Shown: in pieces, positions 1 to 39,674 of the stretch
Layout: the number at the start of each line of letters is the position of its first letter
Position numbering within the stretch: the stretch's first letter is position 1
Assembly (NCBI GenBank): GCA_000002435.2
Contig: CM018792.1
Source of the DNA: Giardia intestinalis
Lineage: Eukaryota
Reading direction: 5' to 3' (one strand)
Length of the DNA: 64,000 nt
The notes under the pieces: model-generated
What the model was told of the DNA's origin: nothing
What the model saw: the letters and a program-made list of their open reading frames with translations, nothing else
The model's database searches: none
Translations under genes and position numbers: made by a program

Positions 1-3000
1 CAAAACGCATCCTCTTCCTCATATGATCTTCCCCTGTTGACCTCTGTTCCTGTGCCGGAAAGAATAATTCCACAGATATACCCATCCCAATCAGGTACCT
101 TTATCACAGTGCTTTCTGTGGTTGCTCTGAGCGTGGTGTCAACCACGTTTGCAGCTCGTGATAGAGGTAAAGGCCACTCTACCTTGCGCCTCCTGGGGGT
201 CTCTGAAGGCGTATACTGGTTTGTACGATGGATAAGCACTGTAGTGATGTCTTTTTTTTCCTCCGTAATTCTTGTCCTCACTTGCTACTGTTCTCACATC
301 TTGCCCCTTGCTGGCTTCACGGTAGGATTTTTGCTTCTGCTAGCATTTTTACTAACGCTCCACACTGCAGGTTTTTCTCTGTTTCTCTCTGCACTGTTGG
401 GTCGCAGTGGAATTATCATGCCTCTAGTAGCTTCCCTCTTGATTGGGATTCTTTGCGGGGCTGTGGTTACGGCGACCTTCCGACTCACATACAACACCGG
501 CAGTGTCCTTGACCCTACAATTATGCCTTCTCCTCTAACGTGGATCCTTTCTTTGCTGTTTCCTTCGTTCAATATTCAGCATATTTTTGACTTCATGATG
601 CTTGTTCTGGATGATTCCTTGCGTGGAAAATTCGTCTCAATAACCAGTTCGACGCGGAAAGATCCAGCATCACTCCTGGCCTGTGGTATGAAGTGTTACG
701 CGGACCCAGAATATGCCAATTCAGTCTACTTGGGCGAGCTTGTCGGAGCAAAACAGAGCGCACTAGATTCATCAGTTACTGGCTTCTCAGTCAGGACGTA
801 CACCGTGCCGTCTGCGGCTATTTTTTGCATGCTTCTAGCCATTCAGTGCATTGCTTACACATTACTAGCAGTAGTTCTGGGTTATTCTCTCTCTGAGCCC
901 ATGTATAGAGGCATAAATCTTATTAAAGTGCTTCATCAAGCGTTGCGCTACAAGAGGTACCGCAGAAAGCATATGAGAAGCGAGTCAAGCAATACATCAT
1001 CCGCTGTATCTGTGGCATGTCAGAATCTGCAAGTGGCATACGGTTTTGGGAGGCGTAAGCTTATTGCTGTCGATAACTTTACGTTCATTGCACGTAAAGG
1101 TTCGATCCTTGCGTTGCTGGGAACAAATGGGGCGGGGAAGTCATCGGTGATGGCTGTTTTCGCTGGAGAAAAGGCACCTACAAAGACGTCTGAGCCAGTG
1201 CTTGTTAATGACTATGATATGCGTTCTGACTATGAAGCACTTCTAGCACGGGGCTGTATTGGGAAATGCCCCCAGCACAATCAGAACGTTTTCGAATCCT
1301 TCACGGTCTTGGACAACATCTACCTTTGTGCACTTTATCGTGGAGCACTAGATACTACTCGCGCTTGTATGAAGCATAGCGAGCCTAAAATGGGTAGCGA
1401 GAACGTTATAAACTCATCATCCCCAGCAATACTTGACGATGAGATCCAAAGTCGCTTCGCTGGTACCAATGCCCGGCTGGAGCTCTTCTCTAACTATGCA
1501 GCCATGCTGAATCTTGACAGTTCGGCTCTCAGAAAGCGTGCAGAAGCCTTATCTGGAGGCATGAGACGGCGCCTCAGCCTTCTCAATGCCACGATTGGCC
1601 TCTGCGACGGGGTTGTGTTCATGGACGAGGTATCGACCGGCCTTGACCCACTGACATGTAGAAGCCTTCATGATTACATACGTTATGTGGCCAATCAGCA
1701 ACGAAATACAATCATTTTGACCACCCATAATATGGCAGATGTTGAGGCCTTGGCAAGTGGTGTAGTGTTAATGAAGCATGGGGTCACAGTTGCTCAGGGG
1801 ACTGTGGATGAGATTTGCTCCACGTTAGACTGCTATAACATTACCCTCTACGCCTCCAGTGTGACCTCTTCGCGGCCTGGGCCCGTCATCGCACATCCCT
1901 GCTTTCCCCAGCAATGCAAGGAGGTGTCTCACAAGGTAAGTGTCAAGATAACTGAGATTATACCAGATTCAGATTGCTCCTGTGTCGATCTTGTTCTGAA
2001 TTCACGAACGCTGTACACGTTCCGTCTCTCGGGAAAAGCCATGCCCTATCTTCCTTGTGTTTCTCAGTATCTGGATAGTATCCTCGGGTTCTTTGACGCG
2101 ATATCCTCTTTTAGCATTGAAACTGCCACTCTTGATGACACATTTGTGGAGCTTGCTGCTGATAAGGACGTCACGGAATACTCTAGCTCTGCTCCTGTTA
2201 CTCTTTACAAAAGCAATGCTAAGCATTTGCACCCTAGGGTCTCGTACAGTGGTGCCTCTGGTCGTGTGACTATTGATGACGTGAGAGAAGAAGACTCGAA
2301 GAACTTCCTTTCGACAAAATCATCGTTTTGGCGAACGGTCGCTGCGGGTCTTCTTCGCCTGTGTATTCTAGAGGTTCGCATGCTCAAGTTGGGATTTCTT
2401 CCCTCCATTGTGATTTTCTTTGTCGCTGCTATGGCTGTAGTTGCCGTCAGCAAGGGGTTGATTGTATCATTGAGTAGTTTTGCAGACTCATCCATGCAAA
2501 CACTTCTTGAGAAGCAAAAACTAGAAACACTGATGGAGTGTCTTTCTTGTTGTAACCCTCTTTATCGTGATACAGTGGTCTCTGGGCTTATTGCAGCCGG
2601 ACGGAGCGACCTAGCACAAAATGACACATATGTCGATGGAATCGTTTTCATTTCTTGTTCTGCTACACGGCCATCAGGATGCTTTTCGGACTCGACCGAT
2701 AGTTTCTATGTGCCATCATCATGCCAATCTTTCTTAATGTTGTATGGCTGGGATGTTATGAACCCACGCACCCGGACTACAGGTACCAGTGCGCTGTGGC
2801 CATACTTCACCAACAATGAAGTGCCTCATTATCTCATTGCTAGCAACGAGCCATTAGTGGAGGCAACGTTGCACGCATCTTCTCAGAACGCAGTCGTTGA
2901 GCTAAGCACTTATAATACGTTTTCACCTACATGCTTGGAGTTTCTTCAAATATGTGCCAATGGTTGCAAGGTTGCTGCTGCTCTTTTAGATTCAGAGTCC

Positions 3001-5682
3001 AGCGGGCTTTATAACACAACTCTCTGCCAAAAACTGTGTGATGAAATTGGTTATGGAATTGCACCAGCAAGCGGCTCGCAAAACCGCGACCATGCCAGCC
3101 CTTATACTGGCGTTTGTAGCTCAATGAAGACGTGCTCAGGGGTTGTACTCAATCAATCATTACATGCTGAGGATGTTTTTCTCCGAAACCTCCAGTTACA
3201 GAAAGAGAGCCTCAGGTTCAGCTACCTTGATCTCCAGGACCACTCCACTACTTCCCCATTGGCTGAGGAGAGAAACCGTGCATATTATATGCATCTTGCA
3301 CATGAAAAATACGCTCAGCAGAGCCCTTTTCTATTCTTCAACTGGACACCTGGTGGTCTTACAACTTATGGAATACTCCCCGATACGGCAGGTGGAGACT
3401 ACAGCTACAGCTCAATGGAGGCCCAGGTTCAATTGCCATATGGGCTGACTCAAAATATAAGTCTTTATCCCAAAGAGCTTGCTGGGCTCTACCCGGACAA
3501 TGCTAACTTTGTGCAACTAGCTAACGTAACAGAGCCTGTCGGTGATGAGTACCTTCGAATGCGGGGCTTCCAAAGCCAGAATGACTTTACGTCTTTGTTG
3601 TCCACGGCTTTCCCTGATCGCTATCTTACAGAACCCGTCAATGCTTATACGTCGATAGTCAGCCTAGTTCTGCATATGCGTTTCGAAACGCAAAGAATCA
3701 ACTCTATTAACAATGCCACAGAGTATGTCTTCAGGGATCAATCGGTTCCTTTCTTTTCCTCGACAGTCCAGGCGATGCCATACGTTGCGGACACACACAT
3801 CAATTTCTTCGGTGCTCAGCTCATTTCTTCTATTAGCTTTCTCCTTCTCCCTCCTGTTTTCATGGCGCCGATTCTTTATGTCTCAATAAGTATATTACGG
3901 GAACAAGAGAGCCAGATGGCTAAGATGCTCAAGCTTCATTCTATAAGCAAAGAACTGCAGGTTTTTACAATCATACTCTACTATCTAGTTGCATCTCTCC
4001 TCTCAGTCATCTTGGCCGTTGTAGTTGGTCTCATTCTCAACATTTCGTCCTTTAGAAAGACTGGAGGATACATGGCCAGCATGCTTATCGGCTTGAGCTA
4101 TTCGTCGGCCGTCGTTGGAGCATGGATTGCACGAATTCTCAGGGATCCAAAGGTTGCAGCATTTGTTGCTTGCTGTTTCATTCTTATCTGCTTCATGATC
4201 TCGGTCTTTCTCACAGATATTAATCCCATTTGCATTGTCATTAGCCCCCTCTACTTTCTCGTTTTCCTACAAAAGGGCACAATACTCACGAATCTATCCA
4301 CAAGCTGGCTGGACTTTGTGATTGGCTTTTTTATCACAACCACGCAATTGATCATTGTGCTTAACAAGGGTTGGCTTAGCTATGTAGATGGTATATCAGA
4401 GTCGTCTGTAGTAGATTCTGAATCAGAAGTCTTAGACTCCTCGACCGGCGTTGCTATTCGTACTCCTTTGGAAGGTGTGGGTGGTGAATCTACCCTGACC
4501 CAGCTGATCACAGATCCGTCTAAAATGGACAAGCCGTGTCCCAGTCTCTACGAGAGTCATTTGATGGATGCAGATGTTGCACTAGAAACGCTCTTTCAGG
4601 CACACAGCACAGACGAGATAAAGCTTCACGTCGCCAACCTTTCCCATCACTATGGGAAACAGCATGTTCTCAAACGGGTTGGACTAGACATACGTAACGG
4701 CGAGATCTCTGGACTCGTTGGGCTTTCTGGATCCGGAAAGACGACTCTGATCAACTGTCTTGCGGATATCGTGGTTCCCGATACTGGTACAGCCCTTCTG
4801 CGTCACGCTTCAGGAACAGCAGATTTGCTCTCAACCGGAAAGGCCTCTGGTTCTGATAAACTCCCTGCTCCCCTGTCTTTGATACCCCAAGACGATCTAC
4901 TATATCCGGGACTAACCATCATGGACCACTTACGACTCTTTGCGCCGCTTTATGGATATAAGCACAGCGGAATATATGTTAACGGACTCCTTACTACGCT
5001 ATCCCTCTTCGCACACCGGCACAAGCGCATTCGCGAGCTATCTGGCGGTATGCGCAGACGAGCGAGCTTAATCATTGCGCTTCTCGGCTGTCGACATATT
5101 CTCTGCCTGGACGAATTTACTACGGGGCTCTCCGTTAACATCAAGCGAGCCGTATGGCAATCTGTGCTGGCAGTCATCACCGACATGCAGCTATCGGTTA
5201 TCTTGACCTCTCATGACATGCATGAGCTAGAATTCTTTTGCATGAACGTGTCTGTCTTGCATAGGGGAAGCATGGTGTATTCTGGGGAAACCCGTAAGTT
5301 GGGCTACAATTCTAAAAATGATGTCAGGAAGCACTCCACTCCTGCTTCCCAGTGTATTGTTCAACTACGATGTACAGAGGAGGAAGCACCACGACTCTTG
5401 CATCTCTTTTTCCAGCAGTTCGAGAGCAGTGTCCGTGGAACCAGCATGTCTAAGAAAGAGCACTCGATGGATAAAGAAGAGGCTGTTCTTCTTTGCATTC
5501 GCGTTTCTCTTACAAGCGCATTGTCACTAACAGATGTGCTTAGCGTTTTATGCACAACCCTGTCTTCCTACAAGTGGCTCATTGGGTTCTCTAAGCTGGA
5601 AGACAGCTTTCTACACACAGTGTCTGCGGACGCAATCGATGTGCCGGCAGTGAAACAGATCTGCAGTACAGAACAACACTGA
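1..5682 (+). CDS. Full-size ABC transporter of ABCA type with TMD-NBD-TMD-NBD topology, 5'-partial. The ORF is open to the left window edge; the track start at 37 is a TTG.
   Basis: Two nucleotide-binding domains are visible. NBD1 has Walker A LLGTNGAGKSS, signature LSGGMRRRLSLL and Walker B VVFMDEVSTGLDP. NBD2 has Walker A GLSGSGKTTLIN, signature LSGGMRRRASLI and Walker B ILCLDEFTTGLS. Each NBD follows a block of about six hydrophobic helices. There is no in-frame stop between positions 1 and 37. Confidence 0.85.
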   Translation, partial: QNASSSSYDLPLLTSVPVPERIIPQIYPSQSGTFITVLSVVALSVVSTTFAARDRGKGHSTLRLLGVSEGVYWFVRWISTVVMSFFSSVILVLTCYCSHILPLAGFTVGFLLLLAFLLTLHTAGFSLFLSALLGRSGIIMPLVASLLIGILCGAVVTATFRLTYNTGSVLDPTIMPSPLTWILSLLFPSFNIQHIFDFMMLVLDDSLRGKFVSITSSTRKDPASLLACGMKCYADPEYANSVYLGELVGAKQSALDSSVTGFSVRTYTVPSAAIFCMLLAIQCIAYTLLAVVLGYSLSEPMYRGINLIKVLHQALRYKRYRRKHMRSESSNTSSAVSVACQNLQVAYGFGRRKLIAVDNFTFIARKGSILALLGTNGAGKSSVMAVFAGEKAPTKTSEPVLVNDYDMRSDYEALLARGCIGKCPQHNQNVFESFTVLDNIYLCALYRGALDTTRACMKHSEPKMGSENVINSSSPAILDDEIQSRFAGTNARLELFSNYAAMLNLDSSALRKRAEALSGGMRRRLSLLNATIGLCDGVVFMDEVSTGLDPLTCRSLHDYIRYVANQQRNTIILTTHNMADVEALASGVVLMKHGVTVAQGTVDEICSTLDCYNITLYASSVTSSRPGPVIAHPCFPQQCKEVSHKVSVKITEIIPDSDCSCVDLVLNSRTLYTFRLSGKAMPYLPCVSQYLDSILGFFDAISSFSIETATLDDTFVELAADKDVTEYSSSAPVTLYKSNAKHLHPRVSYSGASGRVTIDDVREEDSKNFLSTKSSFWRTVAAGLLRLCILEVRMLKLGFLPSIVIFFVAAMAVVAVSKGLIVSLSSFADSSMQTLLEKQKLETLMECLSCCNPLYRDTVVSGLIAAGRSDLAQNDTYVDGIVFISCSATRPSGCFSDSTDSFYVPSSCQSFLMLYGWDVMNPRTRTTGTSALWPYFTNNEVPHYLIASNEPLVEATLHASSQNAVVELSTYNTFSPTCLEFLQICANGCKVAAALLDSESSGLYNTTLCQKLCDEIGYGIAPASGSQNRDHASPYTGVCSSMKTCSGVVLNQSLHAEDVFLRNLQLQKESLRFSYLDLQDHSTTSPLAEERNRAYYMHLAHEKYAQQSPFLFFNWTPGGLTTYGILPDTAGGDYSYSSMEAQVQLPYGLTQNISLYPKELAGLYPDNANFVQLANVTEPVGDEYLRMRGFQSQNDFTSLLSTAFPDRYLTEPVNAYTSIVSLVLHMRFETQRINSINNATEYVFRDQSVPFFSSTVQAMPYVADTHINFFGAQLISSISFLLLPPVFMAPILYVSISILREQESQMAKMLKLHSISKELQVFTIILYYLVASLLSVILAVVVGLILNISSFRKTGGYMASMLIGLSYSSAVVGAWIARILRDPKVAAFVACCFILICFMISVFLTDINPICIVISPLYFLVFLQKGTILTNLSTSWLDFVIGFFITTTQLIIVLNKGWLSYVDGISESSVVDSESEVLDSSTGVAIRTPLEGVGGESTLTQLITDPSKMDKPCPSLYESHLMDADVALETLFQAHSTDEIKLHVANLSHHYGKQHVLKRVGLDIRNGEISGLVGLSGSGKTTLINCLADIVVPDTGTALLRHASGTADLLSTGKASGSDKLPAPLSLIPQDDLLYPGLTIMDHLRLFAPLYGYKHSGIYVNGLLTTLSLFAHRHKRIRELSGGMRRRASLIIALLGCRHILCLDEFTTGLSVNIKRAVWQSVLAVITDMQLSVILTSHDMHELEFFCMNVSVLHRGSMVYSGETRKLGYNSKNDVRKHSTPASQCIVQLRCTEEEAPRLLHLFFQQFESSVRGTSMSKKEHSMDKEEAVLLCIRVSLTSALSLTDVLSVLCTTLSSYKWLIGFSKLEDSFLHTVSADAIDVPAVKQICSTEQH

Positions 5683-15379: not shown

Positions 15380-17407
15380 TTAAATTTTGAAAAGATTCGC
15401 CATCTCCAGCAATAGCGGCAACAGTGGTTCGAGGTGTGAAGCACCTTTATTACTCTGCAATCTGGAGTGCAGGCTTTCGTACAATGCACTTGTCTGAGGC
15501 TGTTTTTTAACGGCTTCTGGAAGAAGGGAATATGCCTTAAAAGCAAGGCTGTCCTCTGGGATTGCTGGTGGAGAAGCCTGGACTTGTGGTGTCACAAGTG
15601 TCGCCTCCACTTGCTCGGTTTTTGGTGTCTGTTGATCAGCTGTGCAACTATCTATAAGTCCACCTGAAACACTAGCTCTGAGCTCCTCAACCAGACGTGG
15701 AGCATCTGGAGTCCCAAGTGCCATCAGTATGGATTCTGAAAGCCCAACGTCACACTGAGGTGATTGTAAAAAGCGCCCTGGATACGCGGCCCGGGGATCA
15801 GCCAGTCCCGAAATGGCAGAAACGGTAAGCCTATCGCGAATGCCTGTGTGCCCTCTCTCGTTACCTGCAGGCATTCCAGATGTGGAGAGGCCCAAGTTCA
15901 CGTTCACTCCAACGCTTCCAGCTAGGGAGCGAGTGAAGGCGTACTTGGAATGTGATAAGCTCTGGCCGGTATCGATGCCCGTGACTGTCTGAGATGCTGA
16001 GGTGACCGATGCAATTGTGTCCTCCAGAAGGCTCAGATTCCCCATAGACGCTTGCGAGAGGTCAAGGCCCCCGGAGTCCTCCTTGTCTAGAACAACGGTG
16101 ATGTCACCATGTGTATTCTTCATGATCATTGGCTTGTATGCCAAGACGATGTTGACCGTGTTCTCAGTAGCAGGCGGCTGTGCAGCCTCCGGGGCTGCGT
16201 GAAGAATGCTTACACGGGTGCTTCGAGCAAGAGAGTTCGGGTGTCCGATGGCCGTAAAGATATTAGTCTCAATAAATCCTAGATTGCGTACTTCGTCACG
16301 CACAAGCTTGTGCACCTCGAATATGCTGACACGGTCCTTGGGGCGCTGGACAAGACACAGGGAAATAATGTTCTTGAGTGCGTCTGAATACTTGACACGC
16401 TTGTCCTGAAAGCTGAACTCTGCGCGATAGTTATAGCGAAGATCGTTGTCTGGAAATGGCAACCGTCTATACATCAGTCGATACAGCAATATTCCGAAGG
16501 CAAAGACATCAACAGCAGTGCCCAGGGGAAATTCAGGGTCGATCTTGATCTGCTCGGGGGCCCGGAAGCACGGGGTTGTCTTCAGCTCCAAGGACCTCAT
16601 CAAATCCTTCATCCCCTGCTCATTGTTCTTCATTAGATCTTGAAGCCTCTCGGAATCGTAAGACTCTGTGGTGCAGGATCCAAAGTCACAAAGCCTAAGA
16701 AGCTCTGGAAACTTGGTTGTGCAGCCATTATTGGCCAGTATATCGTCCAAATCATATGGCTCCAAGATCAGAATATTTTCTAACTTGAGGTCTCGATGTG
16801 AGCACCCCTTGCTGTGCAGACAGAGAATAGCAAGGGTGATGTTGTATGCAAACCTCCATATGAGTGGTTCTGGAAGAAAGACCTTGCGCTCTGAACATTT
16901 AATAAGGAGTTTGACGCAGTTCCCGCCCGAGCAATATTCAAGCAGTAGGCGGATAGTGGTGCAAGGAAGCCTTTTCATGCTATGCTTTCCCCCGTCCTGG
17001 ACTCCATGTCCCACACCGGGGACGGGGAGCGCGGAGGATGACAGCTTTAGTTCACGTTCCTGGGGCGCAAATTGTGATGATGTGATACTTGATGCTAGAT
17101 AGGACTGGGAACTGTGCATGCCATTTACGGTTAAATACTCATCAAAACACGCAAAATCTGCAGGGATATAAGTATCATCTAGAAGTAATCCGTGGAATCT
17201 AACAACACACTTTTCGTTGTTGAATCGGAGATGGAAGTAGATCTCTGTTATTGCATCATCATAAACCTTCAGGTCTGACACAGAAAGATGCTTCAATACA
17301 TACTGTTCTCCCGCACAGGATGCAGAATAAATGCGTGCAGATCCGCCCCTTGCAATCTCTTGGCCCACAATGATCTCCTTGTCTCCGAAACGCAAAATGC
17401 TATCCAT
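15380..17407 (-). CDS. Ser/Thr protein kinase of the NAK family (AAK1/Ark1/Prk1-like): N-terminal kinase domain followed by a long low-complexity C-terminal tail.
   Basis: Catalytic loop HRDLKLENILI, activation-loop LCDFGSCT, then CFRAPEQIKID...PLGTAVDVFAFGILLY. Compare the NAK consensus HRDLKVENLLL / KLCDFGSAT / YRTPEMVDLY. ATG at 17405-17407. Confidence 0.65.
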   Translation of the reverse strand: MDSILRFGDKEIIVGQEIARGGSARIYSASCAGEQYVLKHLSVSDLKVYDDAITEIYFHLRFNNEKCVVRFHGLLLDDTYIPADFACFDEYLTVNGMHSSQSYLASSITSSQFAPQERELKLSSSALPVPGVGHGVQDGGKHSMKRLPCTTIRLLLEYCSGGNCVKLLIKCSERKVFLPEPLIWRFAYNITLAILCLHSKGCSHRDLKLENILILEPYDLDDILANNGCTTKFPELLRLCDFGSCTTESYDSERLQDLMKNNEQGMKDLMRSLELKTTPCFRAPEQIKIDPEFPLGTAVDVFAFGILLYRLMYRRLPFPDNDLRYNYRAEFSFQDKRVKYSDALKNIISLCLVQRPKDRVSIFEVHKLVRDEVRNLGFIETNIFTAIGHPNSLARSTRVSILHAAPEAAQPPATENTVNIVLAYKPMIMKNTHGDITVVLDKEDSGGLDLSQASMGNLSLLEDTIASVTSASQTVTGIDTGQSLSHSKYAFTRSLAGSVGVNVNLGLSTSGMPAGNERGHTGIRDRLTVSAISGLADPRAAYPGRFLQSPQCDVGLSESILMALGTPDAPRLVEELRASVSGGLIDSCTADQQTPKTEQVEATLVTPQVQASPPAIPEDSLAFKAYSLLPEAVKKQPQTSALYESLHSRLQSNKGASHLEPLLPLLLEMANLFKI

Positions 17408-17434
17408 TCAAGAGTTTTGTCAACGAAAATAAAA
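17408..17434. promoter_or_regulatory. 27-bp shared divergent promoter region between the NAK-family kinase and PME-1 genes. Contains A-rich initiator-like sequence (caacgaaaataaaaATG).
   Basis: The two start codons are 27 bp apart on opposite strands. Giardia promoters are known to be very short, A/T-rich initiators close to the ATG. Confidence 0.4.
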
Positions 17435-28505: not shown

Positions 28506-28970
28506 TGCGAAATTTTTTTTAAGAGACTGTTCATGTTCAGCATTACAGGGATCGTGTTACTTGTTATTCTTGTATTGATTTTTGTCTATTAAACATAGGC
28601 GCCACGAGCACGCAGAGTGTCTGTCTGATGACTTAGGGTCGCGATGTTTCTAAACGTTGTCAATTAGGCACGTCTAATTTAGAAGAAATTGTGCCAATAA
28701 CAATTATGTGTATTGCCGTGTCCTATTATGTTCTCCTGTGGCAGCTGCGCCTCCCTGGTACCCCAGTGGCTCATCAGATTGACTCCTAACACAAACAGTA
28801 TTTGATAGAGAGCAATTGAAACGGGATCTTCTTGTTTCCCCAGCAATCACTCTGGAAGCACCTCTGCATTTCTGTTGCAGGCAGAGATGCATCTGAGACA
28901 TCTTGCGTTGCAACTTCAGAGGCAAGCAAAATTCTGACCTCGAATGTTTTGGAAATTTTTAAAAACGTGA

Positions 28971-31900
28971 TTGTTCCGTTCTCTCAATCTGGCACTTGCA
29001 ATAGCCGTTGTCTTCTTGCTTGCGTGTGTGCTCCAGGCATCCCTCTCCACTTCCTGCAACTATGGAATAAGTGAGCTGACAATGGAGGTATTTAAAAACG
29101 TGACTCTGTTTCTCCGTGAGCTGAGCTCGGCAGATGTCCTCCAGAAGAGCATATTGGCTGCGAACCCTATCCCTGCGACATTTCTCTTCGACGTCGAGGA
29201 GAAGCTCAGTGAGGCTGTGGAGCGTGTTGACAGGATCATCAAGGAAAAGGCTACCGCTCTGCGCTCTGCGATTAACTATCTGGAGAAGCTCTATGCCGAC
29301 CTAATGCACACGAACGAGCCCATTTTCATCTGCGAACCGCCCATTGACACGCCCACGTTCTTCCAGTCAATCTTCTACCAAAATGCGTTTGTCGACCCGA
29401 CCTCTGTATCGGCTGTGCCACTGAGGCCTCTTCCACAGTCGTCCTGCATCAATGTCAACCTGGCGAGCATATTTGATAACTTGGTCTTCACCGATTCATT
29501 TCCCAAATCTGACTTTTACGAGGAACCAACGCAAAAGATATATTCATCCTTGGATGAAGATGGATACATTATCGGCAACGCATCGGCAACGACGCGCGAG
29601 GCAAATGTTTATCCCCGCGCTAGCTTTCAATCCTATTTAGATTTGGCTGTGTTCTCCTACCCTCGTGTTAGCAGTTTTGCCACCACGAGTAGCATAATAG
29701 ACCAGGAGAAGAAGAAGTTTGCCCAAACATACAACCAAATAACATCCACAGACACTAGCGTTCCGGCGGGGATCATGCGGTCAAAGATTCATTCTGCACA
29801 CTACAATCTTGCAGACACCTTTTTCATAGTGTTGCTGAGTGACTGTGAAGACACCTATACACAGACCATCTACCCTAATCCAGATATCTTGCATGAGCAA
29901 TTGGTAGACTTTCCAGAGATGTTCACAAGAGGTCAGCTGAAGTTCTCCTACAACTTGCTTGGCGAGCAGGAGATCTACCGCTACGATGATGTCGACTACC
30001 CCGGAATAGATCTGGTCGCCGAGACACTATATGTGAATGTGTCGGCGCAGCAGAAACTATTGAAGACCTCCCTCCAGATCTCGGTAGACATTGCCCAGTC
30101 GATAATAGAGGCCAAGTCGGGCTTCTCGTCCACCGGCGTCGTCTTTGTGGGTTGGAATAGCCTCTTCCCTCTAAAGTCCTCCTACAAGGTGTTTACAGGG
30201 CCTTCTGACGTCTATCTAGACTTCATGAACAGCGTTGTCCGCAACATCTCGGCAGCCAACCACTGTCTCATTCCAACACTCTTTGATCTCTATGAAGCGC
30301 TGCACAATGTGTATATGGAGCGTGTCGAGTACCTGTCCAAGGTGTACCAGCGGCGCAATCCTCTGTACACTGAGTTCGAGTCACACTACAGGGCTCTCGA
30401 CAATTCGGCCCAAACATCGCCCCAGCAAACCACTAGGATCCGTCCCCTGGTAGTCTACATCTTGGGATCCGGAATAAGCACGAATAACCAAAGCATTGTG
30501 AAGTCCACGTCGTCTCTTAAACTCATCTCTGAACTGCTGAGAAAGATGAAGAAGATCAACATACAAATAATCATCATCGCAATTCCTCCGGACAAAGACT
30601 CGAGAAAGGAAAAGAGTGTGTTCAACAAGCGCATGCTCCACTACGAGCAGTTCTGCTGGCTCCGCCGTCTTCTTCTTCCCCGTGCCTTTCATGTTTTTGA
30701 TATCGATGATTACGTGAGCTACATGACTCAGCACTTTTCATCCACAAGCATCTGGTTTCATCACAGGGACATCTACTTCCGTCACATCGTGGAACGGTAC
30801 CTCTCCCCTCTCAGAAGCAAGGACAGTGATATCTACTTCTCTGCCCCATACCTGAATCTGCACGGCAGCTCTATGGTTTCGTTTTGCGGCAACGTGTTTG
30901 TAGACCTAGTCAATCTCCCCAAGAATCAGCACCCTACCTTTAATCACACACTGCTGGTCAACACCACCCAGACATCTAGCAAATTTATCATTGGGTCTGT
31001 TTGTGTCGAGCTACCCATGGGCTCGCTGGTAGCTATGCACGGCTTGGCCCACAAAACATATAGATCTTTTCTTCTCGACAGAAACAGCTTGTCGATCCTG
31101 GGATCTACGTCGCGGTATAAGCCCTTCTGGCAGTACTTTCAGTGGTCTGTGATGGAGTCTCTTCCGAAGAATGCTGCAGATATAATACTTCTGCGCGAGC
31201 AAGGACTAATCGAGCTGGACTTGCATACAGGATATATAGTGCATTATAAAGGCCGCCCGTATAACAATAGCTTTACGCTCGATGCAGATCTTCCGACTGA
31301 CACGAGTCCCTATCCCCTGATAAATAGAACGCGCTATCTTTTCTTCCAACAGATCCCTAACCGCAACGATCTTGTGCTATTGGTCTCACTTAATTTCCAC
31401 GTGTGGGATTATCCACTCGCCCCCAGAAAAACAATTAACCCACCTCTGGGTATAGAGTACCTACTCTGTGGAAATGACTCACCTGATTCTGCCACATTTT
31501 ACACGGTACAGACCGTCTTCTCAAAGGCATACAAGAATACCGGCAAATACACACAAGGGTTGAGCCAATCCTGGTACTCAACTTCAGCACTGTGTAGCTC
31601 TATGTCGCAGTTAGTGCGTGCCTCACCAGAAGTATTTGAGATGAAGTACAATGCTAGTCTGGTGGGCGCCCTGGGACTGAATCCTAGTGTCTTGCGCTTC
31701 GCACGATTTGCTGCGGACAATTCAGGCACCTTGAGAGACTGCTACAACGCGTTCAACGCAGAAGCTACTGGCGTGCCGGGTTCAGTCTCCCAATGCATCT
31801 TTCTTGACCTTTCTGGAAACGTCCTTGCATATCCGTCTTTCAGATGTACAAACACATACAACAAGCTCATCCAGAACTTGCTCAACCAGCCTGTGGCTAG

Positions 31901-32870
31901 AAGGATCTCCTTCCATCGCTCCTCCTGCATGTGCTCCACGCTTTTCTACGATAGTGGGGACCCTGTCATTTTGGACGATTATGACACCTACCTTTACAAC
32001 TTTACTTGTGTTTCTATGGTAATAAGACTCTATAGCAAGTCAGTTCCAGACTTCCTGGACCACCCAGAGGTGGTGGGGTTCTTCATTGTCACCTTCACGG
32101 ACCATGGTTTAAAGCGCTTGTATACGAAGAAGAAGGCAGAGTTTGTTGCGGAAATAGCTGCTATTTGCCCTAACTACGATCCAAGTCAACAAATATATCA
32201 ATGCAACAATCTCATGTTTATAGACTTGCATACGGCGGACATTTATATAGACGACTTCTCGAGCCTCCTCATAGATGCCGAAAAAATTATCAATCCTCAT
32301 GTGAGCCAGATGCAGTACCTGCTGTGGTATCACGGATTTCTTCAGTGCGTCTTCAGGCAGTATCACGACAAAGTTCTTCGAACCATGGCTGCATCTAAAG
32401 CTTTAGAAGATATCTATACCGCAATGATCTTTAGAAAGAAGGATATGATAACCTATGATGTCTACTCAAGGCACTTGCAAGATGCAGAAACTGTGAAAAG
32501 GGTCAAAAATAAGGTTGTTCTGGGTCTCTTTTATGACATCAGTGGAGTGGCTGTGGACGCCACGTATCTGTCGCTGAATGTAACCCCGAGTGTGGGATGT
32601 AAGCGCGAACTGGAAGACTCGGGAGCTCTCCTTGCATACTACCCCCAAGCAAACACCTTGAGCTTGGCATACAGTGACGCCTACTACACTACTAAAGACA
32701 AAGCTGAATTCATTGCTGTCTCGATTTATTCCGAACTGGAACAAAAGGTACTATTCCCATTGCTTATCAGCGTCACTGTCCTCCTGCTGCTCTTTACGCT
32801 CCTCAAAACAATTTTCAGGAGAACACCTGTAGCGTATCGACTGCGCTTGCATCACGTAACTGGCCGGTGA
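28971..32870 (+). CDS. Large type-I membrane protein (about 1,260-1,300 aa) with an N-terminal signal peptide, a long luminal/extracellular region with many N-x-S/T sites, a C-terminal transmembrane helix and a short basic tail. The start is uncertain.
   Basis: Signal peptide LFRSLNLALAIAVVFLLACVLQASLS is encoded at 28971-29048. The C-terminal helix is LLISVTVLLLLFTLL followed by KTIFRR. The first in-frame ATG downstream of the signal peptide is at 29082. An upstream in-frame ATG at 28944 is separated from the signal peptide by a TGA at 28968-28970. Confidence 0.55.
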   Translation: MFRSLNLALAIAVVFLLACVLQASLSTSCNYGISELTMEVFKNVTLFLRELSSADVLQKSILAANPIPATFLFDVEEKLSEAVERVDRIIKEKATALRSAINYLEKLYADLMHTNEPIFICEPPIDTPTFFQSIFYQNAFVDPTSVSAVPLRPLPQSSCINVNLASIFDNLVFTDSFPKSDFYEEPTQKIYSSLDEDGYIIGNASATTREANVYPRASFQSYLDLAVFSYPRVSSFATTSSIIDQEKKKFAQTYNQITSTDTSVPAGIMRSKIHSAHYNLADTFFIVLLSDCEDTYTQTIYPNPDILHEQLVDFPEMFTRGQLKFSYNLLGEQEIYRYDDVDYPGIDLVAETLYVNVSAQQKLLKTSLQISVDIAQSIIEAKSGFSSTGVVFVGWNSLFPLKSSYKVFTGPSDVYLDFMNSVVRNISAANHCLIPTLFDLYEALHNVYMERVEYLSKVYQRRNPLYTEFESHYRALDNSAQTSPQQTTRIRPLVVYILGSGISTNNQSIVKSTSSLKLISELLRKMKKINIQIIIIAIPPDKDSRKEKSVFNKRMLHYEQFCWLRRLLLPRAFHVFDIDDYVSYMTQHFSSTSIWFHHRDIYFRHIVERYLSPLRSKDSDIYFSAPYLNLHGSSMVSFCGNVFVDLVNLPKNQHPTFNHTLLVNTTQTSSKFIIGSVCVELPMGSLVAMHGLAHKTYRSFLLDRNSLSILGSTSRYKPFWQYFQWSVMESLPKNAADIILLREQGLIELDLHTGYIVHYKGRPYNNSFTLDADLPTDTSPYPLINRTRYLFFQQIPNRNDLVLLVSLNFHVWDYPLAPRKTINPPLGIEYLLCGNDSPDSATFYTVQTVFSKAYKNTGKYTQGLSQSWYSTSALCSSMSQLVRASPEVFEMKYNASLVGALGLNPSVLRFARFAADNSGTLRDCYNAFNAEATGVPGSVSQCIFLDLSGNVLAYPSFRCTNTYNKLIQNLLNQPVARRISFHRSSCMCSTLFYDSGDPVILDDYDTYLYNFTCVSMVIRLYSKSVPDFLDHPEVVGFFIVTFTDHGLKRLYTKKKAEFVAEIAAICPNYDPSQQIYQCNNLMFIDLHTADIYIDDFSSLLIDAEKIINPHVSQMQYLLWYHGFLQCVFRQYHDKVLRTMAASKALEDIYTAMIFRKKDMITYDVYSRHLQDAETVKRVKNKVVLGLFYDISGVAVDATYLSLNVTPSVGCKRELEDSGALLAYYPQANTLSLAYSDAYYTTKDKAEFIAVSIYSELEQKVLFPLLISVTVLLLLFTLLKTIFRRTPVAYRLRLHHVTGR

Positions 32871-36070: not shown

Positions 36071-37519
36071 CCACTTGTCAACCTCTTCTATTAAGGATTG
36101 TAGCTCGCGTGTCAGAGAAGAAGCATGACCCATTACATTCTGCATCTGATGAATGAGCTGTTCTTTCTTGGCGTCTTGAAGGCTTCGTAGCTTGCTAATC
36201 GTGTCTTGGTATGCACGCATCATGTTCAGCTGGTCCGCGGTGCACTGCTCTAGCTCCTGGTTCTTCTGGGCGAACTCTGCAAGTAGAGCGTCATCTCCTT
36301 TCCGCTCCTCTTCCAACTCCAGTATGCGCTGTCGCTGCTTGACATCTGCCTCCTCTAGCTTTTGGGCTCTGGCCAGCGCTGAATTGAAGTTGTCGACGGT
36401 GTTATTTGTGTGGCTCATTAGTCGATTGGCTACCGCAACAGATGCAGCCCGGTCGATCTGGGCCTCGTGGAGCCCTTCTGTAACAGCCTTTGTTAGTAGT
36501 GAAAGAGCAGCTCTGACGTACCTAAGCTGTGTGGCGGTCGCCTCATCCGTTGCACAAACAAGCACAGACAGTAAATCCACTCGACGAGCTTCTTTGGTAA
36601 GGTAGCCTTCCGAACTGCCATCTATGATGAAAATACTATGGTAAGTGTCAAACATAAGAATCTGTGGAGGTTGCAGAGAGAATGTAAGCCTTGCCTCTGC
36701 ACACATGATGAGCTTCGGGGCTGTGTCAGTAAGTAGGTAGTGTATGGTCAATGCTAGATGTCCATGGTGTCGTCCTAGGAGTACAAGAAACCCTTGGTGA
36801 AGCAGGAGTCCTTGTAACACCAGTGTGTTTTGATTCATATGGCCATCCGGGGTGATACGTATCAACTCATAATGCGGATAGCGCAAAAGATATAAGCCAC
36901 TGGGAAGCAGGTTAGCTGAGTTCTGTGTTACAGTAGTCTGTACAGACAAGAGTGCAATGTGTTTTGACTGGCATAGTATCTTCATTTGAGTTGCGCTTCC
37001 TAGCATATGGGCCCTTTTGTTTTCGATTATGACACATGCGGTGCTGCCAGACAGCTCTTCACTACCCAGAAGAAGTATCGTGCTGTCCTGCAGACTGCCA
37101 GAATCTCCTTGCCAACAGGCAACGTCACTAACTTGTTGTATCGGAAGATTGGACGTGACGGGAAAGAGAGAAGTCAAGGACAAGTCTTTTGCAGAGACAC
37201 GATAGAAGAAGATGCCCCTCTCTGCATGCGGACTGTTGCCATCAAGAGAAATGGGTATAGATGTAACCAGCAACATACTGGATGAAGTAGCGGTACAATA
37301 AGCATGCCACCACCTTGACTCTGTCGTACGAATAGATAATGGCCGGCGCATCCGGGCCACAAACACAGTTCGCATTGCAATCTTGTAGGTTCTAAGCTCC
37401 ATACTCAACTCGTCCTTCAGTGCAGTCACAAGTAAAGCATGCTCCTGGGCGCAGACGCGAGTATTCCGAAGCGCATCTAAGCTTACTGAACACTTCACCC
37501 TCTCAATCATCGTTTTCAT
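36065..37519 (-). CDS. Hypothetical protein with a globular N-terminal ~370 aa and a C-terminal coiled coil.
   Basis: A heptad-like charged C-terminus (KLEEADVKQRQRILELEEERK...ELEQ...LRSLQDAKKEQ). ATG at 37517-37519. No family recognised. The 3' end overlaps the NSUN5-like gene by 6 bp. Confidence 0.45.
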   Translation of the reverse strand: MKTMIERVKCSVSLDALRNTRVCAQEHALLVTALKDELSMELRTYKIAMRTVFVARMRRPLSIRTTESRWWHAYCTATSSSMLLVTSIPISLDGNSPHAERGIFFYRVSAKDLSLTSLFPVTSNLPIQQVSDVACWQGDSGSLQDSTILLLGSEELSGSTACVIIENKRAHMLGSATQMKILCQSKHIALLSVQTTVTQNSANLLPSGLYLLRYPHYELIRITPDGHMNQNTLVLQGLLLHQGFLVLLGRHHGHLALTIHYLLTDTAPKLIMCAEARLTFSLQPPQILMFDTYHSIFIIDGSSEGYLTKEARRVDLLSVLVCATDEATATQLRYVRAALSLLTKAVTEGLHEAQIDRAASVAVANRLMSHTNNTVDNFNSALARAQKLEEADVKQRQRILELEEERKGDDALLAEFAQKNQELEQCTADQLNMMRAYQDTISKLRSLQDAKKEQLIHQMQNVMGHASSLTRELQSLIEEVDKWS

Positions 37520-37584
37520 TCAAGAAGGAGTTTACAGGCGGTTGGCTGCGCTACAGTCAACAGGGAAAAAGGATTGAAAAAGTA

Positions 37585-39585
37585 TCATTCAGAAGGCCTA
37601 CTTAAACTGCGAAGATAACTACGAAGACTACTGTCCCTAGATAACAAATCAGCAGACAATCCCCTGCTATCTTTGATGTCATATTCATAGGGGGCCAATA
37701 CACGCGCAATCTCATTGTGGTTTAGCTTCACTGCCATGAGAAGCGCAGTGTTCCCATTACAATATTGGTCAGTCAGGAAATCTGATGACGTAACCATCCG
37801 TGTCTCTAGGGGCGCCAAAAGCTGCACGAGGTTTAGGTAGTTTTGGACAGTAGCAAACATCAGGGCAGTCCAGCCATATTTGGTCTTGGATCCTACCTCA
37901 CCCTTATAGTTTACGAGCAGCTGAGCGCACTTTTCATGGCCACAAACGACTGCATGCATTAGGGCAGTCCCTGGAAGTAGATATCGCCCGCAGCTCCGTA
38001 ACATGCCGGCCTCCTTCGGGGCCAAAAGAGGAATTGCATCTGCATAGCCCAATTCTGCTGCATACATGAGCGCTGTTTTACCGGAGCGGTCCTGTTGGCC
38101 ATAAAGGCTAGATAGCTGGCGGATGCGTTCCAAGTCGTAAGCAAGCACTGCAGTGACAAGCTCGTTGTGCAGCGAGTCTTCGTATATGAATGGTGGTGTT
38201 AAAGAATCACGCAGATTGGCGTCGTCAAACTTCAGGTTATTACCAGGGGCAGCCTCTGTGGAAGGCGTCGAAGGAGTGACAAGGCAATTGCTAGACATAG
38301 ATACAGGTTGAAATGAATAGTCTCCAGAGTGGTGATCTATTGTGACCACTACATAAGACCACGCGTCAGAATCAAATGGCATGAGAGGTTGAGGACTAAT
38401 GTCCAGTGAAGTAGATGACTCTGACCCATAGAAGCTTGTTGTCTTCATGCCAGTACAATCTGGAGAATGATAGCTGGTAGAAACAACGGACTTAGGTTTA
38501 GATTTAGTAGTAGATAATACAATCGCAGTTTCTTCTGTGATGGTGGATACATCAGAAGTGGTTACACAAGTCTGGGAACTTGCCGAGACTGTAGCAATGG
38601 GACACTGGGTCTGCACATAGGCATCTACTATCTCTGGTTTCTCTCTGGAACTACGAGTTAGTTCTAATAGCTGGGAGGTCTGCTTTGTATAAGCCAATCG
38701 GGATGCTTCTAATTTTTTCTCTAACTCTGCTACCTGGGTCTCTAACTCTGCTATCCGAGTGTTCGTTTTAGCAGATACCAATAAAGATAAGGGAGGTAGA
38801 GCCGGGGGGTTTCGAATCAAAGGTGTTGTTAGGATGACATTGGGATTAGTTGTTGAGCTGCTCTCCGCAAACGTGTCAGTGTGTTTCGTGTGTTGACGAG
38901 AGCGAGGGACCTCTGTGGAAAAGGATCGACCGACTTTGGGAGAGGCTGAAAAAGACATACGGGGCACGGTTATTAAAGGTGTAGTGTTAAATTTGTCAAT
39001 GGACACAGGAGAGGATAGCTTCTCTGAAGACTGGAGTATAGCCTGTAGTTCTCTAGTCACTACAGCATCGGGCTCCTTCTCAACACACCAAGCCAGAGCG
39101 TTTGTCAGTTGGTCAGGTAAGTACCTAATGCTTTGTAATGCTGAAACAGCAAGTTCGCTTCTTGGAGAGCTCAAGATCACCTGGAGGCTGGATCTTCCTA
39201 ATGAGTCATACTGGCAGCCCTGGATGGAGATGAGCTCCATCGTTACTCCCTTATCAAAAGGATCCATCGACAGCGCAACGTCGAGGGCTGTGTACCGCTT
39301 ATCCTGTCCTAGAAGCAGGTCGAATTCTAGCCGTCCCAGGACTCGTACAAACGAAAGATTAAGCCGTAGAACCGCCTCAAGAAGAGCGCTGCGTCCAGTA
39401 TTATCAACGAAGCCAGCTTCGTGTTGAGCAAGCAAAATGACAAGGTGCATGTGACCAAGTCGGGTGGCTGTCATGAGCGCCGTGGCCCCGTTTTCGTTCC
39501 GCTGACCCTTCATCGTCTTGATAGCTTTCAGAACATACGCCAAGTTTCCTGATTCTACTGCAGAAAACCATGCTGCCGTATCCAT
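37585..39585 (-). CDS. Ankyrin-repeat protein of the Protein 21.1 type.
   Basis: Ankyrin repeats at both the N- and C-termini (GATALMTATRLGHMHLVILL; GKTALMYAAELGYADAIPLL; GWTALMFATVQNYLNLVQLL). ATG at 39583-39585. Confidence 0.75.
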   Translation of the reverse strand: MDTAAWFSAVESGNLAYVLKAIKTMKGQRNENGATALMTATRLGHMHLVILLAQHEAGFVDNTGRSALLEAVLRLNLSFVRVLGRLEFDLLLGQDKRYTALDVALSMDPFDKGVTMELISIQGCQYDSLGRSSLQVILSSPRSELAVSALQSIRYLPDQLTNALAWCVEKEPDAVVTRELQAILQSSEKLSSPVSIDKFNTTPLITVPRMSFSASPKVGRSFSTEVPRSRQHTKHTDTFAESSSTTNPNVILTTPLIRNPPALPPLSLLVSAKTNTRIAELETQVAELEKKLEASRLAYTKQTSQLLELTRSSREKPEIVDAYVQTQCPIATVSASSQTCVTTSDVSTITEETAIVLSTTKSKPKSVVSTSYHSPDCTGMKTTSFYGSESSTSLDISPQPLMPFDSDAWSYVVVTIDHHSGDYSFQPVSMSSNCLVTPSTPSTEAAPGNNLKFDDANLRDSLTPPFIYEDSLHNELVTAVLAYDLERIRQLSSLYGQQDRSGKTALMYAAELGYADAIPLLAPKEAGMLRSCGRYLLPGTALMHAVVCGHEKCAQLLVNYKGEVGSKTKYGWTALMFATVQNYLNLVQLLAPLETRMVTSSDFLTDQYCNGNTALLMAVKLNHNEIARVLAPYEYDIKDSRGLSADLLSRDSSLRSYLRSLSRPSE

Positions 39586-39674
39586 TCAGGGATTTGTATA
39601 AATGTGCTAAAAAGGACAGAATTGTAAATTTTTGCTAGATAGGAGGCTTACTCGGTCCTATTTTGCTCTGAGAC

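Follow-up and report, generated by a model that had tools for sequence, protein, structure and literature searches.

The in-frame TGA at 28968-28970, upstream of the Giardia intestinalis gene GL50803_36515, is a genuine, ancient stop codon. On balance, it probably bounds the coding region on the upstream side rather than interrupting it. Between this stop and the annotated ATG lies a signal-peptide-like stretch that, by its pattern of substitution, evolves as coding sequence. With the stop real and ancient, translation most likely starts at a non-ATG codon. We lean toward initiation at a near-cognate codon (TTG 28971, CTG 28989, or ATA 29001) downstream of an initiator at 28956-28966. All positions refer to the window, the whole 64,000-nucleotide stretch of DNA that was analyzed; codons with negative numbers are counted from the annotated ATG.

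The protein and its coding extension

The annotated start of GL50803_36515 is ATG 29082, and the features of the gene from the stop codon onward are as follows.

28971..29048, + strand: ATG-less signal-peptide-like coding extension LFRSLNLALAIAVVFLLACVLQASLS, between the TGA and the conserved segment
29049..29081, + strand: conserved segment TSCNYGISELT, predicted mature N-terminus, upstream of the annotated ATG
29062..29070, + strand: out-of-frame mini-ORF ATG GAA TAA, inside the coding extension
29082..32870, + strand: database CDS GL50803_36515, 1,262 aa, hypothetical protein (XP_001708321.1, KAE8303562.1)
32748..32816, + strand: C-terminal transmembrane (TM) helix VLFPLLISVTVLLLLFTLLKTIF (KD19 peak, 2.79)

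The frame is open from ATG 29082-29084 through to the stop at 32868-32870. Counted from TTG 28971 to this stop, the ORF has the 1,299 codons given by the first-pass annotation of this DNA; the product from ATG 29082, put there at 1,263 aa, is 1,262 aa long. That ATG had also been called the first usable one. It is indeed the first in-frame ATG after the TGA, but the out-of-frame ATG 29062 precedes it, opening a mini-ORF with counterparts in assemblage B (ATG AAG TAA) and lineage X (ATG TAA) and none in lineage Y. The Met of ATG 29082 is conserved across all four G. intestinalis lineages (assemblages A and B and lineages X and Y), and the codon lacks the usual A/T-rich, initiator-like context. 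Most probably it encodes an internal Met; at best it would serve as an alternative or minor second start.

The predicted C-terminal TM helix is followed by a basic tail of 17 residues and is kept in all homologues, including the one from G. muris and the more distant P0031. Together with the N-terminal extension, it makes up the only two strongly hydrophobic segments of the protein. The "many" N-x-S/T sites noted earlier do not amount to an enrichment (13 observed versus 9.7 +/- 2.8 in shuffles). The gene body is under strong purifying selection (pN/pS, 0.13 to 0.20), and the mRNA is polyadenylated in trophozoites (PMC9014877 supplement). The protein has no sequence match in Pfam, NCBIfam, or PDB, and an AlphaFold model from a 6-sequence alignment reached a mean pLDDT of 38, too low to be of use. 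The gene ID was not found in the main texts searched, and no 5'-end datum for it is given in the supplements searched on TSS-seq or on RNA-seq. The short contigs from public assemblies that were examined for transcript 5' ends were genomic or began inside the gene. The 465-nt intergenic region has no match to a known RNA family.

As the first-pass annotation had described, a signal peptide follows the TGA directly and in the same frame: LFRSLNLALAIAVVFLLACVLQASLS/TSCNYGISELT occupies 28971-29081, after which the frame is continuous. The extension comprises a basic n-region, a 15-residue hydrophobic core (LALAIAVVFLLACVL), and a c-region whose -3 and -1 residues are small; a core of 7 to 15 residues and such -3/-1 residues are typical of a cleavable (Sec61-type) signal peptide. 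The core has a KD15 maximum of 3.24 in A and of 3.07 to 3.25, at an identical offset, across the four lineages. Among the 28 long genes in the window, the hydropathy of this pre-ATG extension is by far the highest (others, KD15 of ≤2.29). On manual check, the c-region reads S-L-S/T in A and A-L-S/T in B, with an alternative C-V-A/ in X and Y (the slash marks the cleavage point). What the extension lacks is an initiator Met: there is no in-frame ATG from the stop to the core, nor indeed up to 29082, in A, B, and Y, and only lineage X has an in-frame ATG before the core (codon -27). The peptide spanning the annotated Met would be TSCNYGISELTMEVFK in A and TSCNYEVSGLTMEIFK in B.

Several features of the alignment show that, at the sequence level, the region upstream of ATG 29082 evolves as coding sequence, which bears out the earlier suspicion that a model starting at that ATG is incomplete. 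Frame 0 is the sole frame open in all four lineages, in agreement with the earlier remark that the reading frame is preserved without a frameshift. The alignment of the extension among A, B, and Y contains zero indels, while the 150 nt upstream of it contain 2 to 5 indel runs of 1 to 4 nt. In codons -12 to -1, pN/pS is 0.13 to 0.49 in frame 0 and ∼1 in the other frames, and differences between lineages in the TSCNYGISELT segment are almost all synonymous. The hydrophobic core is retained at 33 to 43% nucleotide divergence; in neutral-decay simulations, an open frame and a hydrophobic core survived in 0.7 to 1.8% of the runs per deep pair. Two A sub-types differ across the extension by 4 synonymous changes and 1 conservative one (V to A).

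In nucleotide sequence, the initial 50 nt of the extension show no greater conservation than the upstream DNA, which is weakly alignable (gapped alignment) at a similar 42 to 52% identity, and coding is not demonstrable for codons -37 to -32. What sets the extension apart is not raw identity but its zero indels, its kept hydrophobicity, and the pN/pS across codons -12 to -1. An antisense ORF was rejected as the source of the constraint, as no antisense frame is open in all four lineages. Entry by frameshift from another frame or by transcriptional slippage was likewise rejected: the other frames close within 6 to 7 codons in B, and a one-base change at the A5 run fails to reach frame 0. Depletion of ATG in the leader was not significant (P = 0.05 in Y only).

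Homologues point the same way. The orthologue G. muris GMRT_12812 (TNJ27108.1) belongs to the same family (E = 1e-120). Both it and the more distant homologue P0031 carry an ATG, a hydrophobic N-terminus, and a C-terminal TM helix, a combination that, judging from these sequences, is normally found in the family. Taken together, these data support the hydrophobic stretch as a real, selected, signal-peptide-like N-terminus that belongs to the protein, in keeping with the secretory-type N-terminus first proposed.

The conserved stop and the candidate start codons

Upstream of the coding extension and at its 5' end, the following features were considered.

28944..28970, + strand: mini-ORF from ATG to TGA (MFWKFLKT, then stop), assemblage A-specific
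28956..28966, + strand: initiator-like element TTTTTAAAAAC, with the predicted major TSS at its central A (28961)
28968..28970, + strand: conserved in-frame stop TGA, codon -38 from the annotated ATG, 5' bound of the extension
28971..28973, + strand: codon -37, TTG, candidate start 1, at a distance of 10 nt from the predicted TSS
28989..28991, + strand: codon -31, CTG, candidate start 2, in a context of purine -3 and G +4
29001..29003, + strand: candidate start 3, ATA (codon -27), corresponding to the lineage X ATG

The layout reported earlier (ATG 28944-28946, M-F-W-K-F-L-K-T, then TGA 28968-28970) is exactly as found. Comparison of the locus in other isolates and assemblages, a check proposed along with that report, found the TGA to be identical in 5 independent assemblage A assemblies and 2 assemblage B assemblies. 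The TGA occupies codon -38 in A, B, and Y alike, and a TAA aligns with it in lineage X; among these lineages, 24 to 29% of protein positions differ. ATG 28944, on the other hand, is found in assemblage A only; the upstream ATGs of X and Y differ in position and frame, and B has no in-frame ATG in the open stretch (∼50 codons) before its TGA. Compared in this way, ATG 28944 looks fortuitous. It lies 17 nt upstream of the predicted TSS and is probably outside the mRNA, and 28944..28970 is probably promoter or leader DNA that contributes nothing to the gene product.

The element TTTTTAAAAAC matches 9 of the 11 positions of the initiator variants published from TSS-seq (CTTTTAAAAAT, TTTTTAAAATG, and ATTTTAAAAAT; PMC3792122). 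Its matrix score of 11.0 is in the top 0.01% of window positions, whereas the median best initiator score for the other 27 genes in the window is 5.0; the match is as strong as those at bona fide gene starts in the window. Giardia leaders are reported to be 1 to 14 nt, without scanning (PMC3610916); thus, a start near 28961 fits better than one 121 nt downstream. The best initiator-like sites in B, X, and Y are found at -154 to -175 and not at -121, so the short-leader picture may hold for A only.

No single candidate codon stands out in all lineages. At codon -37, A and B share TTG, Y reads TTA, and X has no counterpart. At codon -27, ATA is found in both A and Y, whereas X has ATG and B has GTA (next to GTG at -28); in the N-terminal alignment, this codon is roughly aligned with the ATG of G. 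muris and distant homologues. The near-cognate candidates at -37 and -27 are therefore not common to all four lineages. Codon -31, with a purine at -3, is the only position that is near-cognate throughout, as CTG in A and a weak ATA in B, X, and Y. From this evidence, we infer the TSS position, the use of a non-AUG start, and the choice of codon. The searched literature yielded neither a case of non-AUG initiation on a cellular Giardia mRNA nor a Giardia ribosome-profiling study.

Alternative explanations

If the database model is right, which we consider unlikely, translation starts only at AUG 29082, and 28971-29081 is 5' UTR. The protein would then have no signal peptide, would have a large cytosolic domain and a tail anchor formed by its C-terminal helix, and would owe the hydrophobic reading of its leader to a relic or to RNA-level or promoter constraint. 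A 17-residue tail after a TM helix is compatible with tail-anchor insertion, and that of GL50803_36515 fits; the sequons are not enriched, AUG 29082 is the first in-frame AUG, and its Met is conserved in the four lineages. Giardia is also thought to use the first AUG (PMC3610916), and TSS-seq has revealed long leaders on some of its genes (PMC3792122). However, a 5' UTR fits poorly with the coding signature upstream of 29082 (pN/pS of 0.13 to 0.49, no indels, only frame 0 open), with the synonymous-only differences in SCNY..LT, and with a core that neutral decay would keep in ∼1 to 2% of cases per deep lineage pair. It also fits poorly with the ATG that G. muris, P0031, and lineage X have directly before the hydrophobic segment. 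No strong conserved RNA structure offers itself as a source of constraint (over 130 nt, the consensus fold reaches a weak -9 kcal/mol), and the context of ATG 29082 is not initiator-like.

Termination-reinitiation, in which a short upstream ORF ends at or just after the conserved stop and ribosomes restart on an adjacent codon of the signal-peptide frame, is improbable. All four lineages retain a stop at the point where the extension opens, and in each of them an ATG-initiated upstream ORF does end there or just past it (8 codons in A and 28 in Y, both stopping at -114; 61 in X, stopping at -113; 76 in B, stopping at -92). These ORFs nevertheless agree in neither frame nor length nor sequence, and they are not conserved as coding sequence; in ∼300 to 400 nt of upstream DNA, chance alone would be expected to yield some ATG ORF that ends close to a given stop. 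Moreover, the upstream ATG of A lies 5' of the predicted TSS, and the restart codon would still be non-AUG. An undetected upstream exon, cis- or trans-spliced, that brings an AUG to the signal-peptide frame is very improbable. Five of six known Giardia introns are 5' biased, and the one in GL50803_86945 had concealed an upstream extension of 73 codons (PMC3610916); at 28786-28798 there is a Giardia-like 3' motif, CTAACACAAACAG. This motif occurs only in A, B having no copy, and none of the three frames beyond it stays open for long. In every lineage, the 600 nt upstream lack a GTATGY 5' splice site, and the interval from the stop to the core has no conserved AG (the first AG is at 29002-29003 in A and at codon -17 in B). 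The locus therefore lacks the signals that define a Giardia intron (5' GTATGY; 3' CTRAC-ACACAG with its joining AG). Genome-wide splice mapping, which yielded one new intron, did not place 36515 among its 14 candidates (PMC3610916). Programmed readthrough of UGA 28968 from AUG 28944, or its decoding as Sec or Trp, had been among the options first raised, and we give it scant credence. Assemblage A (8 codons) and lineage Y (28 codons) do have an in-frame ATG upstream of the UGA, but B has none and X is frame-shifted there. The lack in B means that readthrough cannot be the shared mechanism. A UGA followed by U is a poor readthrough context; with the weak consensus fold, no stimulatory 3' context or structure is seen. 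The peptide upstream of the stop is not conserved, and the predicted TSS lies downstream of ATG 28944. The other two options raised at the outset, a base-call or assembly error and a strain-specific nonsense allele (a young pseudogene), can practically be dismissed: the TGA recurs in 7 independent assemblies from two assemblages, and its presence at the same codon in A, B, and Y is compatible with neither. The purifying selection on the gene body and the expressed, polyadenylated mRNA also speak against a pseudogene. The options first raised, none of which is supported, did not include a TGA outside the coding region with a protein that starts at a non-ATG codon. Where a conserved stop lies just upstream of a conserved coding extension, error, pseudogene, or readthrough should not be the default reading.

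Proposed initiation and comparable systems

Under near-cognate initiation, transcription would proceed from the consensus initiator at 28956-28966 with a TSS at ∼28961, leaving ATG 28944 out of the mRNA and the UGA within a leader of ∼10 nt. Translation would begin shortly downstream at UUG 28971, CUG 28989, or AUA 29001. The product would carry a cleavable signal peptide (from ∼28971 or 29001 to 29048), followed by the mature N-terminus TSCNYGISELT-MEVFKN..., and GL50803_36515 would be a type-I membrane protein whose signal peptide is made without an AUG start codon in assemblages A and B and lineage Y. The database model is most likely ∼30 residues too short: the signal peptide and 11 conserved residues of the mature protein are probably missing from the reference model (WB) and from most of the assemblage models. 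On such models, signal-peptide and secretome predictions probably misclassify a conserved, Giardia-specific membrane protein as non-secretory.

Translation initiation in Giardia does without eIF4G. A more general proposal, which we consider unlikely, is that on Giardia mRNAs with ultra-short leaders the start is set mainly by distance from the capped 5' end, with loose regard to AUG identity. If this were so, an AUG could be lost without loss of the N-terminus, as GL50803_36515 would illustrate: the start of its signal peptide would have been AUG-less since before the divergence of A and B, the AUG having been lost at least two times independently or lost once and regained in lineage X, and the signal peptide would have stayed under selection all along. 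ATG-only models might then miss the N-termini of other Giardia genes as well. As a natural, evolutionarily maintained gene whose essential targeting signal is preceded by no AUG, GL50803_36515 would offer a ready test locus for the roles of cap distance and codon identity in start choice.

Among the closest comparisons is G. muris GMRT_12812, which shares the C-terminal TM helix, the hydrophobic N-terminus, and a large domain that contains Cys but begins at a normal ATG 14 nt from the neighboring gene and has a shorter hydrophobic core. GL50803_86945 likewise had a 5'-truncated database model, with an ORF continuing upstream of the first ATG (PMC3610916); there, a canonical GT-AG intron of 36 nt is involved (PMC3610916), whereas GL50803_36515 has no splice signals. 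A non-AUG start, at UUG or a later codon, has been proposed for the Giardiavirus capsid protein (PMC8230311). The capsid ORF is similarly translated in Giardia without a usable AUG and with UUG among the candidates, but by way of an IRES of ∼500 nt, possibly with A-site initiation (PMC8230311). GL50803_36515, in contrast, would be expressed from a capped cellular transcript, and no significant conserved RNA structure was found in it.

Finally, GL50803_36515 has one feature of non-AUG-initiated genes, a conserved coding extension upstream of the first AUG that is bounded by a stop. It resembles eukaryotic genes whose N-terminally extended isoforms, initiated for instance at CUG, GUG, or ACG, carry targeting signals: both have a conserved AUG-less targeting extension and an upstream bounding stop, and the extension of GL50803_36515 contains candidate near-cognate codons in a purine -3 context. 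They differ in the host, since Giardia has leaders of 1 to 14 nt and reportedly no scanning (PMC3610916). They also differ in what depends on the start codon; in GL50803_36515, the putative non-AUG start would not yield a minor isoform but would be the sole route to the functional, secreted or membrane-inserted form.

Gene layout and the stop codon across lineages

The window DNA belongs to Giardia intestinalis assemblage A. The first-pass annotation had read an ATG at 28944 (M-F-W-K-F-L-K-T), a TGA at 28968-28970, an in-frame stretch, and then an ATG at 29082, a layout that was confirmed for the following gene:

28971-32870, plus strand, open reading frame GL50803_36515, annotated as "hypothetical protein" (1,262 aa from ATG 29082, MEVFKN...)

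The product from ATG 29082 was given previously as 1,263 aa, one residue too long, and the many N-x-S/T sites ascribed to it are not enriched (13 observed vs 9.7 ± 2.8 in shuffles). The in-frame peptide downstream of the TGA, LFRSLNLALAIAVVFLLACVLQASLS-TSCNYGISELT (here, the extension), ends at ATG 29082. Exactly two segments of the protein are strongly hydrophobic, namely, one within this ATG-less extension and the C-terminal transmembrane (TM) helix, which is followed by a 17-residue basic tail. The KD15 maximum of the extension is the highest for any pre-ATG extension of the window's 28 long genes (3.24 vs ≤2.29 in the others). The first window gene (37-5682, plus strand) has an 82-codon in-frame extension 5′ of its first ATG (247) with moderately hydrophobic stretches (KD15, 2.29).

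Orthologous DNA was compared among two WB-type assemblies, three of a second assemblage A subtype, two of assemblage B, and two further lineages, X and Y, whose proteins are 70 to 74% identical to that of A. Rooted with Giardia muris, the tree is ((A,B),(X,Y)), with X and Y as sisters. The TGA is present in all of the assemblage A assemblies, and B and Y have TGA at exactly the same codon, 38 codons 5′ of the annotated ATG. In X, a TAA aligns at the stop position, a 1-nt deletion just downstream shifts the frame, and a new in-frame TAA lies at codon −33 (counted upstream from ATG 29082), followed by an in-frame ATG at −27 that opens MLAIFLLVCVARTVPPSSCNY... Because the stop is common to these lineages, the miscall and the strain-specific nonsense allele offered previously are excluded; judged from this comparison, the stop is genuine and ancient. 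Purifying selection on the gene body is strong (pN/pS, 0.13 to 0.20), and trophozoites contain polyadenylated mRNA of the gene (9 and 6 nanopore reads; two validated poly(A) sites) (PMC9014877 supplement). The probability that the locus reflects a sequencing error or a pseudogene is negligible.

A TGA directly precedes the ATG in 3/28 window genes (17405-17410, 37517-37522, 39583-39588 [minus strand]; ..ttgaATG, ..ttgaATG, ..ctgaATG). These junctions resemble the TGA-TTG junction at 28968-28973 and are not significant, as ∼1.3 are expected by chance.

Coding constraint on the extension

Across the extension, frame 0, the GL50803_36515 reading frame, is the only one open in all four lineages; every antisense frame is closed in at least one of them. 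The hydrophobic core lies at the same offset in every lineage (KD15, 3.07 to 3.25). No indels occur within the extension in A, B, and Y, while the 150 nt upstream contain, per pair, 2 to 5 indel runs (1, 2, or 4 nt long). Over the last 12 codons ahead of the annotated ATG (S-C-N-Y-x-[IV]-S-x-L-T), nearly all differences are synonymous, with a pN/pS of 0.13 to 0.49 vs ∼1 in other frames. The hydrophobic core has a pN/pS of ∼0.5, a value typical for signal peptides, and the A subtypes differ in the extension by four synonymous changes and one V-to-A change. When neutral decay was simulated with the observed 32 to 41 substitutions per 96 nt, only 0.7 to 1.8% of runs for each deep pair kept an open frame and an equally hydrophobic core. 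Taken together, the open frame, the lack of indels, the low pN/pS, and the retained core uphold the original view that the signal peptide belongs to the protein.

Nucleotide conservation in the first 50 nt after the stop is no better than in upstream DNA; therefore, the evidence for coding is good from about codon −31 on but does not extend to codons −37 to −32. On this comparative evidence, we consider it probable that the extension is translated, and the database model, in which it is untranslated and the protein is tail anchored, is unlikely.

An out-of-frame mini-ORF (ATG GAA TAA, 29062-29070) lies 12 nt 5′ of the annotated ATG; B (ATG AAG TAA) and X (ATG TAA) have counterparts, whereas Y has none. 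Because it falls inside constrained coding codons (Y-G-I-S), it may have been conserved incidentally.

Routes to translation and the predicted transcription start

Programmed readthrough of the TGA, the third explanation offered previously, does not provide a shared mechanism and is highly improbable. The open stretch of ∼50 codons 5′ of the TGA in B has no in-frame ATG, X is frame-shifted upstream of its stop, the upstream ATGs of A (8 codons off) and Y (28 codons off) are not homologous, and the peptide 5′ of the stop is not conserved. ATG 28944 seems to be a chance occurrence in assemblage A. The first-pass annotation was right in its observation and in assigning the signal peptide to the protein, but none of its three explanations held. 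A cryptic spliced exon is nearly as improbable. No Giardia 5′ splice site (GTATGY) occurs within 600 nt upstream in any of the four lineages, and the interval from the stop to the hydrophobic core has no AG conserved across lineages. A single 3′-like motif occurs upstream:

28786-28798, CTAACACAAACAG, resembling the fused branch-point and 3′ splice-site motif of Giardia introns

This motif is A specific (not conserved in B), has no GTATGY nearby, and opens no frame, with all downstream frames closing quickly. In four isolates, splice mapping across the genome revealed a single new intron, and its 14 candidates did not include GL50803_36515 (PMC3610916). Frameshifting into frame 0 fails because the other frames close within a few codons in B. 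Reinitiation coupled to an upstream ORF is slightly less remote than splicing, though still improbable. We found no convincing conserved RNA structure and no significant ATG depletion.

We lean modestly toward plain non-AUG initiation, whereby translation of the signal peptide would begin at a near-cognate codon. The candidates are as follows:

28971, codon −37, TTG in A and B, TTA in Y
28989, codon −31, CTG in A, ATA in B, X, and Y, with a purine at −3
29001, codon −27, ATA in A and Y, ATG in X, GTA in B next to a GTG at −28

Sequence alone does not choose among these; codon −31 is the single position that all four lineages keep near-cognate. In this scheme, ATG 29082 would be an internal Met or at most a minor second start.

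TSS-seq has defined an 11-nt A/T-rich initiator with the transcription start site (TSS) at its central A, top variants of which include ATTTTAAAAAT, CTTTTAAAAAT, and TTTTTAAAATG; a matrix built from the published variants (PMC3792122) predicted the following site:

28956-28966, plus strand, predicted initiator TTTTTAAAAAC, matrix score 11.0

This score ranks among the highest 0.01% of positions in the window; at the other 27 gene starts, the best site has a median score of 5.0. The sequence before ATG 29082 is gtgagctgaca, while other window genes have an A/T-rich initiator run directly 5′ of the ATG. For B, X, and Y, the best matches are instead at nt −154 to −175 from the annotated ATG, and a pyrimidine-run/purine-run junction occurs at the homologous spot in all four lineages. 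The predicted TSS at ∼28961 would place ATG 28944 outside the mRNA, the UGA within a 10-nt leader, and UUG 28971 at the usual distance of Giardia start codons from the 5′ end. Giardia leaders are reported to be 1 to 14 nt, without scanning (PMC3610916).

The 13-mer TTTAAAAACGTGA occurs twice, 133 nt apart, at 28958-28970 and 29091-29103 (0.03 expected per window). Both copies are strongly initiator-like (scores of 11.0 and 11.5), the second lying inside the coding sequence 12 nt 3′ of the annotated ATG and encoding FKNVT. The exact repeat is assemblage A specific; five transitions separate the first copy from B's CCTTCAGAGAC, which makes point changes a more probable origin than duplication. 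At ∼465 nt, the divergent intergenic region (28506-28970) is long for Giardia (14 nt at the orthologous G. muris locus); it aligns only weakly across assemblages and has no Rfam match. The block AAAATATTTRGARAC, about −185 to −165 from the annotated ATG, is conserved in B, X, and Y, with a degenerate version in A; it could serve as an upstream promoter element or mark an alternative TSS.

Homologues and comparison with known non-AUG starts

The GL50803_36515 protein has no match in Pfam, NCBIfam, or PDB, and AlphaFold, run on a six-sequence alignment, gave a model too poor to use (mean pLDDT, 38). Outside G. intestinalis, an exhaustive profile search recovered just two relatives; the family seems confined to Giardia and its close relatives. 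In G. muris, GMRT_12812 (E = 1e-120) starts with ATG-MIIILAIVSTIDAISTES, 14 nt from the neighboring gene. The distant homologue P0031 (E = 1e-12; 22% identity) begins MLILTLTLTHSLSHLC..., ∼15 nt 3′ of an initiator-like T/A run. Both carry the C-terminal TM helix, and in the alignment their Met falls at roughly codons −27 to −24 of the G. intestinalis extension; the family architecture is therefore a hydrophobic N terminus, a large domain, and a TM anchor. P0031, the more divergent of the two, comes from a 30-kb contig of Logan SRR31929897 (L013) with the standard genetic code and Giardia-like compact gene spacing; its source may be an unsampled Giardia-related diplomonad.

Judged against these homologues, G. 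intestinalis A, B, and Y are the family exceptions that lack the ATG. On ((A,B),(X,Y)), at least two losses of the ATG and one loss with a regain in X are equally parsimonious, and under either history the signal peptide has been retained with no AUG from a time before the split of A and B. The 1,299-aa assemblage B models KWX14579.1 and ESU43762.1 (MLRLTDII...) already include the extension, only because TTG was entered as Met, presumably through a prokaryote-style gene caller; MetaClust (P0018) lists the identical sequence as LLRLTDII... The signal peptide is in these models by accident, and no comment on the start codon accompanies the entries as retrieved.

The N terminus of GL50803_36515 is likely misannotated. 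Fungi, plants, and animals offer well-established cases of near-cognate initiation of N-terminal extensions that bear targeting signals, and GL50803_36515 would join that kind in an unusual host. Our literature search found no non-AUG initiation on a cellular Giardia gene; the only Giardia proposal it turned up concerns the Giardiavirus capsid protein, for which initiation is IRES driven (PMC8230311). GL50803_36515 is a candidate for a natural non-AUG start in Giardia.
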